A stretch of 64,000 bases of DNA from Escherichia coli (GTDB taxonomy: Bacteria > Pseudomonadota > Gammaproteobacteria > Enterobacterales > Enterobacteriaceae), in NCBI RefSeq assembly GCF_016026235.1, contig NZ_CP065613.1, one strand, 5' to 3'. The notes beneath the pieces were generated by a model. It worked only from the letters and a program-made list of their open reading frames with translations. It made no database searches and had not been told where the DNA came from. Of the stretch, positions 29,550 to 49,096 are shown piece after piece. A program made the position numbers and the translations under genes. Numbering within the stretch: the first letter of the stretch is position 1; each line of letters starts with the position of its first letter.

Positions 29550-31481
29550 ATGAGTTATCAGGTCTTAGCCCGAAAATGGCGCCCACAAACCTTTGCTGAC
29601 GTCGTCGGCCAGGAACATGTGCTGACCGCACTGGCGAACGGCTTGTCGTTAGGGCGTATTCATCATGCTTATCTTTTTTCCGGCACCCGTGGCGTCGGAA
29701 AAACCTCTATCGCCCGACTGCTGGCGAAGGGGCTAAACTGCGAAACCGGCATTACCGCGACGCCGTGCGGCGTGTGCGATAACTGTCGTGAAATCGAGCA
29801 GGGGCGCTTTGTCGATCTGATTGAAATCGACGCCGCCTCGCGCACCAAAGTTGAAGACACTCGCGACCTGCTGGATAACGTCCAGTACGCTCCGGCGCGT
29901 GGTCGTTTCAAAGTTTATCTGATCGACGAAGTGCATATGCTGTCGCGCCACAGCTTTAACGCATTGTTAAAAACCCTTGAAGAGCCGCCGGAGCACGTTA
30001 AGTTTCTGCTGGCGACGACCGATCCACAGAAATTGCCGGTGACGATTTTGTCACGCTGTCTGCAATTTCATCTCAAGGCGCTGGATGTCGAGCAAATTCG
30101 CCATCAGCTTGAGCACATCCTCAACGAAGAACATATCGCTCACGAGCCGCGGGCGTTGCAATTGCTGGCGCGCGCCGCTGAAGGCAGCCTGCGAGATGCC
30201 TTAAGTCTGACCGACCAGGCGATTGCCAGCGGTGACGGCCAGGTTTCAACCCAGGCGGTCAGTGCGATGCTGGGTACGCTTGACGACGATCAGGCGCTGT
30301 CGCTGGTTGAAGCGATGGTCGAGGCCAACGGCGAGCGCGTAATGGCGCTGATTAATGAAGCCGCTGCCCGTGGTATCGAGTGGGAAGCGTTGCTGGTGGA
30401 AATGCTCGGCCTGTTGCATCGTATTGCGATGGTACAACTTTCGCCTGCTGCACTTGGCAACGACATGGCCGCCATTGAGCTGCGGATGCGTGAACTGGCG
30501 CGCACCATACCGCCGACGGATATTCAGCTTTACTATCAGACGCTGTTGATTGGTCGCAAAGAATTACCGTATGCGCCGGACCGCCGCATGGGCGTTGAGA
30601 TGACGCTGCTGCGCGCGCTGGCGTTCCATCCACGTATGCCTCTGCCTGAGCCAGAAGTGCCACGCCAGTCCTTTGCGCCCGTCGCGCCAACGGCAGTAAT
30701 GACGCCAACCCAGGTGCCGCCGCAACCGCAATCAGCGCCGCAGCAGGCACCGACTGTACCGCTCCCGGAAACCACCAGCCAGGTGCTGGCGGCGCGCCAG
30801 CAGTTGCAGCGCGTGCAGGGAGCAACCAAAGCAAAAAAGAGTGAACCGGCAGCCGCTACCCGCGCGCGGCCGGTGAATAACGCTGCGCTGGAAAGACTGG
30901 CTTCGGTCACCGATCGCGTTCAGGCGCGTCCGGTGCCATCGGCGCTGGAAAAAGCGCCAGCCAAAAAAGAAGCGTATCGCTGGAAGGCTACCACTCCAGT
31001 GATGCAGCAAAAAGAAGTGGTCGCCACGCCGAAGGCGCTGAAAAAAGCGCTGGAACATGAAAAAACGCCGGAACTGGCGGCGAAGCTGGCGGCAGAAGCC
31101 ATTGAGCGCGACGCGTGGGCGGCACAGGTGAGTCAACTTTCGCTACCAAAACTGGTCGAACAGGTGGCCTTAAATGCCTGGAAAGAGGAGAGCGACAACG
31201 CAGTATGTCTGCATTTGCGCTCCTCTCAGCGGCATTTGAACAACCGCGGTGCACAGCAAAAACTGGCTGAAGCGTTGAGCATGTTAAAAGGTTCAACGGT
31301 TGAACTGACTATCGTTGAAGATGATAATCCCGCGGTGCGTACGCCGCTGGAGTGGCGTCAGGCGATATACGAAGAAAAACTTGCGCAGGCGCGCGAGTCC
31401 ATTATTGCGGATAATAATATTCAGACCCTGCGTCGGTTCTTCGATGCGGAGCTGGATGAAGAAAGTATCCGCCCCATTTGA
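29550..31481 (+). CDS. dnaX: DNA polymerase III subunits tau and gamma
   Basis: ORF track 643 aa; Walker A GTRGVGKTS. Confidence 0.97.
   Translation: MSYQVLARKWRPQTFADVVGQEHVLTALANGLSLGRIHHAYLFSGTRGVGKTSIARLLAKGLNCETGITATPCGVCDNCREIEQGRFVDLIEIDAASRTKVEDTRDLLDNVQYAPARGRFKVYLIDEVHMLSRHSFNALLKTLEEPPEHVKFLLATTDPQKLPVTILSRCLQFHLKALDVEQIRHQLEHILNEEHIAHEPRALQLLARAAEGSLRDALSLTDQAIASGDGQVSTQAVSAMLGTLDDDQALSLVEAMVEANGERVMALINEAAARGIEWEALLVEMLGLLHRIAMVQLSPAALGNDMAAIELRMRELARTIPPTDIQLYYQTLLIGRKELPYAPDRRMGVEMTLLRALAFHPRMPLPEPEVPRQSFAPVAPTAVMTPTQVPPQPQSAPQQAPTVPLPETTSQVLAARQQLQRVQGATKAKKSEPAAATRARPVNNAALERLASVTDRVQARPVPSALEKAPAKKEAYRWKATTPVMQQKEVVATPKALKKALEHEKTPELAAKLAAEAIERDAWAAQVSQLSLPKLVEQVALNAWKEESDNAVCLHLRSSQRHLNNRGAQQKLAEALSMLKGSTVELTIVEDDNPAVRTPLEWRQAIYEEKLAQARESIIADNNIQTLRRFFDAELDEESIRPI
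30833..30839 (+). other. dnaX: dnaX programmed -1 ribosomal frameshift heptamer A AAA AAG (yields gamma; -1 frame stops at TGA 30842-30844), followed by GC-rich stem-loop
   Basis: Slippery heptamer and downstream hairpin CCGGCAGCCGCTACCCGCGCGCGGCCGG read directly; mechanism is established for E. coli dnaX. Confidence 0.85.
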
Positions 31482-45673: not shown

Positions 45674-46015
45674 ATGAAACAGGCAACAAGAAAACCGACG
45701 ACACCCGGAGATATTCTTCTCTATGAATATCTGGAACCGCTCGCTTTGAAAATCAATGAGTTAGCAGAGTTGCTGCATGTTCATCGTAATAGCGTCAGTA
45801 CACTGATCAATAATAATCGTAAACTCACCACTGAAATGGCATTCCGTCTGGCGAAAGTTTTTGATACCACAGTCGATTTTTGGCTAAACCTTCAGGCGGC
45901 AGTTGATCTTTGGGAAGTTGAAAACAACATGCGCACCCAGGAAGAATTGGGACGGATTGAAACAGTGGCTGAATATTTGGCACGCCGTGAAGAGCGTGCA
46001 AAAAAGGTCGCGTAA
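45674..46015 (+). CDS. ybaQ: XRE-family HTH protein YbaQ (HigA-like)
   Basis: 113 aa starting MKQATRKPTTPGDILLYEYLEPL inside ORF 45620..46015. Confidence 0.88.
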   Translation: MKQATRKPTTPGDILLYEYLEPLALKINELAELLHVHRNSVSTLINNNRKLTTEMAFRLAKVFDTTVDFWLNLQAAVDLWEVENNMRTQEELGRIETVAEYLARREERAKKVA

Positions 46016-46037
46016 GGCCAAAACATCGCTTCATCTC

Positions 46038-46275
<238 letters not shown>

Positions 46276-46330
46276 TCATGCGTCGATGCCAAATGCGCCA
46301 CCCTAAAGCAGCGCATCCGCAATGACATAC

Positions 46331-48835
46331 TTATTCCTTCGGTTTAAACCGCAGCAACCGGTTGGCGTTACTCACTACGGTAATCGACGAGAGCGCCATT
46401 GCCGCTCCGGCAACTACCGGGTTAAGCAGTGTTCCAGTAAACGGCCACAAAATACCGGCGGCGACCGGAATACCGATACTGTTGTAGATAAACGCGCCGA
46501 GCAGGTTCTGCTTCATGTTGCGCAGCGTTGCGCGGGAAATAGCGAGCGCATCCGCAACGCCCATCAGGCTATGGCGCATCAGGGTAATCGCCGCGGTTTC
46601 AATAGCAACATCACTGCCGCCACCCATCGCAATGCCGACATCCGCCTGAGCCAGCGCTGGCGCGTCGTTAATGCCGTCGCCCACCATTGCCACCTGACGT
46701 CCTTCACTTTGCAGGCGTTTAATCGCTTCGGCTTTACCGTCCGGCAGCACCCCGGCTATCACCTCATCAATCCCTGCTTCTTTGGCGATTGCATTGGCGG
46801 TGGTTGGGTTATCCCCGGTCAACATCACCAGACGATATCCCGCTTTATGCAGGCGTTGCAGCGCCGCCACGCTATCACTACGCAATGGATCGCGTACAGC
46901 CAGCAGGGCTACCGCTTTCCCGTCAACCGCCAGCAGCACAGGCGTTGCCCCTTGCGATGCCTGAGCAGTAATCTCCGCTTCGATAGCTTTGGTATCAACC
47001 TGTTGCTCATTTAACAACGCCTGATTACCCAGCAATAACGCATGACCTTCTGCTTCACCGCTCACGCCCAGCCCGCGCAATGTGCGGAAATCGTTGACCT
47101 GCGGCAGCTGCATATCGCCTGCTTTATCGAGGATCGCTCGTGCCAGCGGATGGCTGGAACCTTGCTCCAGCGCCGCCGCCAGACGCAATGCTTGCGCTTC
47201 ATCAACATCAGCAAATGTTTTTACTGCGACAACCTGCGGCTTCCCTTCGGTCAGCGTCCCGGTTTTATCGAACACTACGGTATCGAGTGTACTGGCGCGT
47301 TGCAGCGCGTCGGCGTCCCGCACCAGCACGCCAAACTCAGCCGCCCGCCCGACGCCGGAAATAATCGACATTGGCGTCGCCAGCCCCAGCGCACACGGAC
47401 AGGCAATAATCAGCACCGTGGTGGCTATCACCAGGGTATAGACAATCTGCGGTGCCGGACCAAAGAAATACCAGATTGCTGCACTGATCAGCGCAATCAC
47501 CACTACTACCGGCACAAATACGGCTGAGATTTTATCCGCCAGCTGACCGATTTCTGGCTTGCTGCTCTGGGCCTGGCGCACCATGCGAATGATCCGTGAC
47601 AGCGTGGTATGGCTGCCAACCGCACTGGCACGAAACAGCACACTGCCGTCCTGTACCACTGTCCCGGCATGGACGCTATCGCCTTCGCCTTTTTGCTGCG
47701 GGATTGGTTCGCCCGTCAGCATCGCTTCATCCAGCCATGCTTCGCCCTGGGTAATCTCACCATCTACCGGCACGCGATCGCCGGTCGTCAGGCGCAGTAA
47801 CATCCCAGGCTGAACTTCCGCCAGCGGCACGCTTTTTTCACCCTCTGCGGTGACCACTCGCGCCGTCGGTGGGGTTAAATCGAGTAATTTCTCCAGCGCC
47901 TTAGAAGAACGCTGACGCGCGCGCGCTTCCAGCATATGGCCGAGATTAATCAGACCGATAATCATCGCACTGGCTTCATAGTAAAGATGCCGCGCTTCCA
48001 TCGGGAACCACTGCGGCCACAGGTTGACGCTCATCGAATAGAGCCACGCCACACCCGTACCCAGCGCCACCAGCGTATCCATCGTCGCCGCACCGTTCAG
48101 CAGGCTTTTCCACGCGCTGCGGTAAAAATGGCCGCCGGCGAAAACCATTACCGCCAGGGTTATCAGGCCGATAACTAACCACAAGCTGCGGTTGTCAGCG
48201 GTGACCATCATGTTATCGCCGATCATCCCCCAGACCATTACCGGGATACCCACAGCCAGTGCAACAATTGCCTGCCAGCGGAAGCGCTTCATCGTAGCTA
48301 CGGCGGTTTCTTGCTGGCGCTCGCGGCGTTTAGCGTCATCTTCAATCGCTTCCGCACCGTAGCCCGCTTTTTCCACCGCCTGCACTAAATCTTGTGGGGA
48401 GGCACTGCCCATCACCAGCGCAGTACGCTCCGCCAGGTTTACCCGTGCCTGAGTGACGCCCGGTACGCTTTGCAGCGCATTTTGTACGCGGGTGACACAG
48501 CTGGCGCAGCTCATGCCGCTCAGCAGCAACTGCTGGCTGTCATCGTCATCGGCGGTCGCTGCCGGAAGCGCCTCAGAAACCGCTGTCAGTGCTTCCGACG
48601 GGATTGATGACTCCGCCAGCGGTTTAGCCTTTGGGTGGCTTACAGATGCGTCATAACCCGCTTGTTTGATGGTTTCGATCAGCTGTTCTGCACTGGCAGT
48701 CCCGGTAACGTGCGCTTCAGTGATAGACACATCCGCTTGTTCCACATCCGGGCGCTGTTCGAGACTTTCTTTCACGCGTTTAACGCAGTGACCGCAGGAC
48801 AGGCCGTCCAGGGTCAGGTCGATAGTTTGTGACAT
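46331..48835 (-). CDS. copA: Cu(I)-exporting P-type ATPase CopA
   Basis: ORF track 834 aa; two N-terminal GxxCxxC metal-binding domains, CPC motif, DKTGT phosphorylation site. Confidence 0.97.
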
Positions 48836-48882
48836 AAAACACTCCTTTAAGACAGTTTTGACTGGCTGTGATAAAGGTTAAA

Positions 48883-48901
48883 CCTTCCAGCAAGGGGAAG
48901 G
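48883..48901 (-). promoter_or_regulatory. CueR operator in the copA promoter (CCTTCC-N7-GGAAGG dyad between -35 TTGACC and -10 TAACCT, 19 bp spacer)
   Basis: Dyad and MerR-type long-spacer promoter read directly upstream of copA. Confidence 0.8.
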
Positions 48902-49096
48902 TCAAGAAATTAATAAACCAGGCGAGTAAAAGTCCGTAAAGATTAAAAAATTGGCTCAATTTGCATCAGGATTAGACATTTATCTCTTTGTTTTCCTGTA
49001 GTTAAGTTGCGGGTGCTAAGTTAAATCAGGATGCCTGAAAATCGGCACCGGGGTGAGGAATTACCTCCCGCATCTATAAAAAGGAGTTAACAAAAG

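Follow-up and report, generated by a model that had tools for sequence, protein, structure and literature searches.

The minus-strand sequence around codons 68 and 69 of copA is a programmed -1 ribosomal frameshift cassette of enterobacterial copA, a reading to which a probability of about 0.95 is assigned. It lies in a 64,000-nucleotide stretch of Escherichia coli DNA (contig NZ_CP065613.1), which was analysed as a whole and is referred to below as the window. The site is not new, as it is the E. coli copA/CopA(Z) frameshift cassette that has already been described. The first-pass annotation had noticed a match to this reported programmed frameshift, and the attribution holds, since the K-12 cassette is identical, the 70-aa product agrees with the published one (PMC5009743) and RefSeq carries a two-piece CDS for it. 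The features of the gene and of the cassette are as follows, in positions of the window.

46331-48835, minus strand: copA CDS, zero frame, 834 aa, Cu(I)-exporting P1B-type ATPase (ORF list, Pfam and annotation)
48875-48905, minus strand: copA promoter region, with TTGACC at 48905-48900, a 19-nt spacer and TAACCT at 48880-48875 (read from the sequence)
48624-48835, minus strand: CopA(Z) reading frame, codons 1-69 in the zero frame, followed by GGC and TAA (translation)
48650-48814, minus strand: first metal-binding domain (HMA), residues 8-62, the body of CopA(Z) (Pfam PF00403)
48629-48635, minus strand: slippery heptamer C_CCA_AAG at Pro68-Lys69 (sequence; invariant in orthologues)
48624-48626, minus strand: -1-frame stop codon TAA, one codon beyond the slip (translation)
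48623-48628, minus strand: spacer GCUAAA, 6 nt, from the heptamer to stem 1 (sequence)
48613-48622, minus strand: predicted stem 1, 5' arm, CCGCUG-g-CGG (stem enumeration and RNAalifold)
48580-48589, minus strand: predicted stem 1, 3' arm, CUG-a-CAGCGG (stem enumeration and RNAalifold)
48591-48599, minus strand: predicted stem 2, 5' arm, GUCGGAAGC, within the stem 1 loop (stem enumeration and MFE fold)
48561-48569, minus strand: predicted stem 2, 3' arm, GCUUCCGGC (stem enumeration and MFE fold)

The copA gene and its surroundings

The Pfam domains of CopA comprise two N-terminal HMA domains followed by E1-E2_ATPase and Hydrolase (HAD) domains, and the matching gene is named copA in 5422 of 5426 complete E. 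coli genomes. The allele found in the window has a 100% match in a single one of the 5426 E. coli genomes, that of strain FDAARGOS_943, and the gene order in this identical strain is ybaQ-copA-glsA-ybaT-cueR, which places cueR three genes from copA. When compared to MG1655 copA, the window gene is 96.9% identical, with 78 of 2505 nt differing and 7 amino acid changes, all of which fall after residue 326, and nucleotides 100-400 of the coding sequence, cassette included, are identical to E. coli K-12. Synteny and the identity to K-12 indicate that the gene is orthologous, and the site falls in the linker that follows the first metal-binding domain.

Upstream of the gene, a dyad (CCTTCC-N7-GGAAGG) sits within the 19-nt spacer of the promoter region. 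This layout is that of a putative MerR/CueR-type copper-responsive promoter, which may be regulated by CueR. A sigma-70 promoter scan with 16-18-nt spacers found no match upstream of copA, which is consistent with the spacer of 19 nt.

The slippery heptamer and the short product

The heptamer CCCAAAG is the reverse complement of positions 48629-48635 and starts at nucleotide 201 of the copA coding sequence, which is the third base of codon 67. The zero-frame codons at the site are CAC (His67), CCA (Pro68), AAG (Lys69) and GCT (Ala70), so the phase and the codon numbers given in the first-pass annotation are exact. The heptamer thus has the X_XXY_YYZ phase relative to the copA frame, and it is the only in-frame heptamer of this form across the 2505 nt of the gene.

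The product of a -1 slip on copA is 70 aa long (MSQT...SHPKG), consisting of codons 1-69 and an added glycine. PF00403 covers residues 8-62 of this product with an E-value of 1.2e-13, corresponding to a complete single HMA domain, and a CxxC motif is present as C14-G-H-C17. Its sequence matches in the PDB are CopZ-type chaperones and ATPase N-terminal domains. The complete domain and its CxxC motif in the 70-aa frame bear out the earlier proposal of a short metallochaperone-like product made from the first metal-binding domain.

The same product is present in the reference annotation of MG1655, where RefSeq lists a second copA CDS (511168..511379) joined from two pieces and described as 'soluble Cu(+) chaperone' (YP_009518752.1). 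This CDS spans 212 nt and, with one base read twice, gives 71 codons, that is 70 aa and a stop; its frame is the same as the -1 frame computed for the window copA. The PGAP annotation of the genome identical to the window contains full-length copA only, and the 212-nt two-piece CopA(Z) CDS should be annotated in this strain.

Experimental work on the site is also available. Efficient -1 frameshifting in E. coli copA has been reported to yield a 70-aa putative chaperone as opposed to the 834-aa product, and C_CCA_AAG is rated as highly shift-prone in E. coli (Atkins et al. 2016, PMC5009743). Loughran et al. 2022 regard the copA finding of Meydan 2017 as well supported by ribosome profiling, with independent confirmation by Drees 2017, and what they retract is the human ATP7B extension only (PMC9548414). 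The -1 shift in copA is stimulated by the slippery sequence, a pseudoknot and the nascent chain alike (PMC7558416), and the copA pseudoknot has been assayed together with S1/S2 variants by single-molecule methods (Wu et al. 2018, PMC6182138).

Conservation of the site in orthologues

Orthologues were collected in two ways. A scan of genome contigs with the full protein was dominated by the universal MVGDGIND motif and had three Enterobacterales among its matches; of these three, Citrobacter werkmanii and an Enterobacter retain the whole cassette. The one Morganellaceae orthologue examined, from Photorhabdus, has neither the linker nor the site. Metagenome contigs were scanned with a degenerate DNA pattern for a 10-residue CopA motif encoded by nucleotides 34-62 of the coding sequence. 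This pattern lies more than 135 nt upstream of the slip site and is blind to synonymous positions, and the sampling is limited to copA genes that carry the motif. The scan gave at least 100 distinct 420-nt 5' ends, composed of 94 intact copA sequences, 5 with frame-breaking assembly errors and 1 unrelated gene. Among the matches listed, the nucleotide identity of the intact sequences to the window is as low as 58%, and exact-protein look-up identified the divergent group as Pantoea, Erwinia and Duffyella (Erwiniaceae).

The absence of the site from orthologues had been named at the outset as an observation that would speak against a frameshift; an in-phase C_CCA_AAG is present in all 94 distinct intact copA 5' ends among the matches listed. 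In the same set, the codon before the heptamer is CAC, TCC, CGC, AGC, TTC, CTC, AAC, CCC or TAC and is therefore always NNC, while the encoded residue varies between His, Ser, Arg, Phe, Leu, Asn, Pro and Tyr. Similarly, the first codon after the heptamer is GCT, CCT, TCT or CTT (always NNT, encoding Ala, Pro, Ser or Leu), and the second, whose residue also varies, starts with AA or GA in every copA orthologue among the matches listed. As a consequence of these two codons, the -1 frame reads TAA or TGA, and all 72 distinct cassettes have such a stop one codon past the slip (among the matches listed). The -1 products of these orthologues are 70-74 aa long. Judged from these sequences, the cassette is common to the Enterobacteriaceae and the Erwiniaceae.

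Synonymous constraint

Synonymous variation was measured as the fraction of sequence pairs with the same amino acid that use different codons, in 67 representatives less than 97% identical to each other (among the matches listed). The synonymous difference amounts to 0.4-0.6 through MBD1 and to about 0.5 in MBD2 in these representatives, and it drops to 0.12-0.2 at codons 66-95, in 9-codon windows centred on codons 68-92. Synonymous sites are therefore conserved in excess over the signals of the cassette. When degenerate codons with at least 90% amino acid conservation are counted, zero synonymous variation is seen in 5 of 8 columns inside the cassette and in 0 of 56 outside it (among the matches listed). 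The invariant codons of the cassette are P68 CCA, K69 AAG, P72 CCG, L83 CTG and P91 CCG. As for the three columns that vary, L73 (CTG/TTG) is the covarying S1 position, E81 (GAA/GAG) corresponds to an A-U to G-U switch in S2, and A82 is a single unpaired junction base. Within the species, 5404 of 5422 E. coli genomes carry the 100-nt cassette with an identity of 99% or more, a level that the 100 nt directly upstream of it reach in only 1894 of 5422.

The downstream pseudoknot

The 6-nt spacer of copA falls inside the range of 5-8 nt that is quoted for stimulators of -1 programmed ribosomal frameshifting (PRF) (PMC6182138), and it is followed by a structure that is predicted to be stable. The predicted arms follow each other in the order S1-5', S2-5', S1-3' and S2-3', which is the arrangement of an H-type pseudoknot. 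S1 comprises 9 bp and S2 comprises 9 bp with -14.4 kcal/mol in the stem enumeration; S2 is also found in the MFE fold, and the RNAalifold consensus recovers S1 without prior input. The fold of a 99-nt segment has a z-score of -2.6 against shuffles. In the single-sequence MFE fold, long-range outer helices extend into the variable acidic linker. A search of positions 48300-49000 against Rfam at a permissive E-value returned no family.

The conservation of the pseudoknot-forming sequence, which the first-pass annotation had suggested as a check, was assessed by a pairing test on an 88-nt alignment with 68 distinct rows (among the matches listed). In this alignment 96.6% of the predicted pairing cells are kept, compared to 18-46% in controls with the partners shifted by 1-3 columns. 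All cells of S1 (100%) are paired; at its fourth pair, 49 sequences have C-G, 18 have U-A and 1 has U-G (68 sequences, among the matches listed). In the U-A state, CTG is replaced synonymously by TTG, and a second substitution, located 36 nt from it, turns Ala into Thr. S2 is paired in 93% of its cells, with an essentially invariant GYCGG/CCGGC core (same 68 sequences, among the matches listed), and some of the Erwiniaceae lack its distal three or four pairs. The cassette of Pantoea has CCGUUG/CAACGG as stem 1, a shortened stem 2 and a -1 product of 73-74 aa. The other changes in the pseudoknot include several G-U/G-C or A-U/G-U switches.

The covariation is made up of one compensatory pair, and 9 of the 18 pairs never vary (among the matches listed). 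The double change from C-G to U-A probably arose once, on the branch leading to the Erwiniaceae. Because this change is probably a single event and half of the pairs are invariant, the formal covariation evidence is modest; pairs that never vary do not separate RNA structure from other nucleotide-level constraint. Synonymous-site conservation is the stronger argument. Two further helices were considered and rejected: an AAA/UUU extension of S1 by 3 bp pairs in E. coli and is not conserved, and a local hairpin (CUGGCGG/CCGUCGG, columns 20-26/38-44) is 83% paired, shows no covariation and is not above shuffles.

Alternative explanations

The constraint described above could also reflect another RNA role of the conserved nucleotides, such as processing or termination, with a short transcript of the copA 5' region as the chief source of the short protein. 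A contribution of such a transcript is proposed in the title of Drees et al. 2017, and the strong synonymous constraint runs about 25 codons past the heptamer, which would be in line with this explanation. However, a truncated transcript has no in-frame stop, and it therefore fails to account for the heptamer, the NNC codon and the -1 stop; the invariance of the heptamer and of the preceding NNC, as well as the retention of the -1 stop through amino acid changes, are left unexplained. In addition, no intrinsic-terminator-like site was found on the copA strand between 48300 and 48835. A short transcript is also compatible with frameshifting, which Drees et al. name as well. That such a transcript is the chief source of the short protein is very unlikely.

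The heptamer might also be a chance in-frame X_XXY_YYZ motif without a recoding role, as most of them are in bacterial genes. Synonymous-codon shuffles of copA contain 1.3 in-frame heptamers per gene on average, the probability that His-Pro-Lys is written as C_CCA_AAG in such shuffles is 0.0135, and 31 in-frame heptamers occur in the window within stop-free frames that are 200 codons or longer. A lone heptamer in one sequence is thus not beyond chance, but its context and its conservation are: a -1 stop lies one codon on, a structure lies 6 nt downstream, and orthologues keep the site without any nucleotide change. The heptamer stays unchanged down to 58% nucleotide identity while every other conserved codon outside the cassette varies synonymously (among the matches listed), and the flanking third positions that make the slip site and the -1 stop are retained despite amino acid changes. 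Furthermore, the reference annotation and the published experiments cover the identical sequence. The conservation data refute a chance origin, which is left with almost no probability. In-frame heptamers also occur in distant CopA genes, close to where the first HMA domain ends; most of them are A-runs from AT-rich genomes, and they were not counted as evidence.

RNA polymerase slippage on C3A3, which would generate mRNAs one base longer or shorter, has a hardly measurable chance of being correct, given that each run is just three bases long, that productive transcriptional slippage generally requires much longer homopolymers, and that conservation of the X_XXY_YYZ phase together with a structure 6 nt downstream is what characterises slippage by ribosomes. 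No support for it was found in this analysis; it was considered because homopolymer runs can cause slippage of this kind (PMC5009743).

Proposed mechanism

The general model of -1 PRF and the published work on the identical K-12 sequence suggest how ribosomal frameshifting would proceed on copA. With tRNA-Pro in the P site, paired to CCA, and tRNA-Lys in the A site, paired to AAG, the pseudoknot would stand at the mRNA entrance, where it would resist unwinding and slow down translocation. In a fraction of the ribosomes, both tRNAs may then re-pair one base back, on CCC and AAA. These slipped ribosomes would read GGC (Gly) and stop at UAA, so that the first metal-binding domain is released as the 70-aa CopA(Z). 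This product would act as a soluble Cu(I) chaperone, for which binding of Cu(I) and its transfer to the pump are described in the literature, whereas ribosomes that do not slip would continue to the 834-aa pump. One gene, behind a promoter of putative CueR type, would thus yield pump and chaperone in a ratio set by the RNA signals. Recoding of copA explains how a copper chaperone is supplied in step with the pump in E. coli, which is without a copZ gene.

The position of the -1 stop deserves consideration as well, since it lies inside the 6-nt spacer in every lineage examined (among the matches listed). Ribosomes that have shifted would thus stop at a point where the pseudoknot is near the mRNA entrance, and perhaps before it is fully unwound. 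It is conceivable, though we regard it as rather doubtful, that the cassette is older and more rigid than a strain-level feature of E. coli and that the placement of the stop within the spacer has itself been selected. If so, the stimulator could stay folded for the next ribosome, and termination could be coupled to reduced translation of the pump downstream. Alternatively, the placement of the stop in the spacer may serve merely to trim the chaperone.

The conserved elements also offer a sequence-only diagnostic for other Enterobacterales, consisting of NNC CCA AAG NNT RAN with a -1 stop one codon after the slip, together with CCGYUG...CARCGG and GYCGG...CCGGC. The reach of the cassette to the Erwiniaceae, with the compensatory stem change and the fixed stop position, is added here and may have been described in the primary paper on the site. 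The comparative data provide independent support for the programmed frameshift and leave the known biology unchanged.

Comparison with known systems

The closest system is copA/CopA(Z) of E. coli K-12 (Meydan et al. 2017 Mol Cell 65:207; Drees et al. 2017 Mol Microbiol 106:635), which involves the same gene, heptamer and codons, the same -1 stop and the same 70-aa product, with no difference from the window in the cassette. Well-characterised programmed frameshifts in non-mobile chromosomal genes of E. coli are limited to copA, dnaX and prfB.

The frameshift in E. coli dnaX (tau/gamma, A_AAA_AAG) resembles that of copA, as both are chromosomal cases of -1 PRF outside mobile elements that use X_XXA_AAG, and in both a -1 stop located one codon after the slip leads to a truncated N-terminal module. 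The dnaX frameshift site is also present in the window, at 30833-30839 on the plus strand. The stimulators of dnaX are an upstream Shine-Dalgarno-like sequence and a downstream stem-loop. In copA, by contrast, a downstream pseudoknot and the nascent chain take part (PMC7558416), and the P-site codon is CCA and not AAA.

With respect to its product, CopA(Z) is similar to the stand-alone CopZ/Atx1-type chaperones, such as CopZ of B. subtilis and E. hirae, which are single HMA domains of about 70 aa with a CxxC motif. Solved chaperones among its sequence matches are 6ff2 and 1cpz. The reported role of CopZ-type chaperones is the delivery of Cu(I) to CopA (PMC7558416). They are encoded by genes of their own, whereas CopA(Z) is the first domain of the pump released by recoding.

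Human ATP7B is an orthologous Cu-ATPase for which a -1 frameshift was claimed in the same 2017 paper as for copA. Loughran et al. 2022 attribute the ATP7B signal to a reporter artefact and find no synonymous-site conservation there (PMC9548414). In this respect the copA cassette is unlike ATP7B, as its synonymous sites are strongly conserved.

The copA allele and its flanking sequences

The Cu(I)-exporting ATPase gene copA of the window, judged by sequence comparison, is an unusual allele: a 100% match occurs in only 1 of the 5426 complete E. coli genomes compared (FDAARGOS_943), while identity to the copA of 5401 others is 95-99%. It carries 78 differences from K-12, 20 of which fall within cds nt 900-1100 (~47736-47936), in contrast to cds nt 100-400, where there are none; this clustering suggests that cds nt 900-1100 may represent a recombined segment. 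The gene and its flanking elements are located as follows:

46331-48835, minus strand: copA
48875-48905, minus strand: TTGACC, a 19-nt spacer with the dyad CCTTCC-N7-GGAAGG, and TAACCT, read from the sequence upstream of copA
46037-46297: three tandem REP/BIME-like units with a 101-nt period, between ybaQ and the copA 3' end

The upstream element is a putative promoter with the layout of the copper-responsive MerR/CueR type, and cueR lies three genes from copA in the gene order of the annotated strain identical to the window (L001). The element was undetected by a standard promoter scan, which admits spacers of 16-18 nt only, the spacer here being 19 nt. At the other end of the gene, the repeat unit reads CGTAGGCCGGATAAGGCGTT[C/T]ACGCCGCATCCGGCA..., and this tandem array gives rise to the repeated entries at 45892-46328 in the ORF list, which are spurious.

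Annotation of the recoded product

The PGAP annotation of L001 (NZ_CP065615.1, 4126-6630) holds full-length copA only, without a ribosomal-slippage CDS for the chaperone at this gene, while the curated MG1655 record does have one. The recoded product is probably absent from most automated E. coli annotations.

Distribution of the frameshift cassette

A variant of the cassette, the copA -1 frameshift site with its downstream pseudoknot, was found in Erwiniaceae (L084, L097, L106, L117, L127, L131, L135, L158 and others among the matches listed), on metagenome contigs that were assigned to Pantoea, Erwinia or Duffyella by exact-protein look-up. Its codons are NNC CCA AAG (C/T)CT GA(N), and the predicted short product has 73-74 aa, with Ala or Val as its last residue. 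The arms of stem 1 are CCGUUG/CAACGG, stem 2 is shorter (~5-8 bp), and loop 3 is either shorter or longer. Five low-coverage metagenome contigs with frame-breaking indels in copA nt 1-420 (L109, L118, L119, L133 and L141) were left out; the frame change in L119 lies two codons past the heptamer, and the indels in all five most likely stem from faulty assembly or sequencing. The 90%-identity cluster of the 836-aa Pantoea ananatis CopA also includes several 267-aa TraB/GumN (YbaP-like) proteins, which has the look of an artefact of the database or of the clustering; the distance from copA to ybaP is two genes.

The Photorhabdus caribbeanensis orthologue (L004:601-1050; 71% aa identity) has two nearly abutting HMA metal-binding domains, and neither a Pro-Lys linker, nor a heptamer at the matching place, nor the pseudoknot sequence was found in it, therefore the cassette is not universal in Enterobacterales. 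Several CopA genes from remote lineages (among them Clostridia and Bacteroidota) carry an in-frame A_AAA_AAG, A_AAA_AAA or C_CCA_AAA near the end of the first HMA domain, at these positions counted from the match start at 601:

L025: nt 165
L081: nt 195
L033: nt 216
L026: nt 195
L052: nt 198
L064: nt 180

These heptamers may reflect nothing but AT-rich composition.

Comparison with dnaX

A further slippery heptamer is present in the window:

30833-30839, plus strand: A_AAA_AAG, in frame at codons Lys429-Lys430, in an ORF of ~643 codons that ends at 31481

Read in the -1 frame, it is followed by Glu and then a stop, with a GC-rich hairpin (CCGGCAGCCGCUACCCGCGCGCGGCCGG) downstream. These features identify it as the well-known programmed -1 frameshift site of dnaX (tau/gamma), so that the window, with dnaX and copA, holds two of the three well-characterised frameshift sites of E. 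coli chromosomal genes outside mobile elements.
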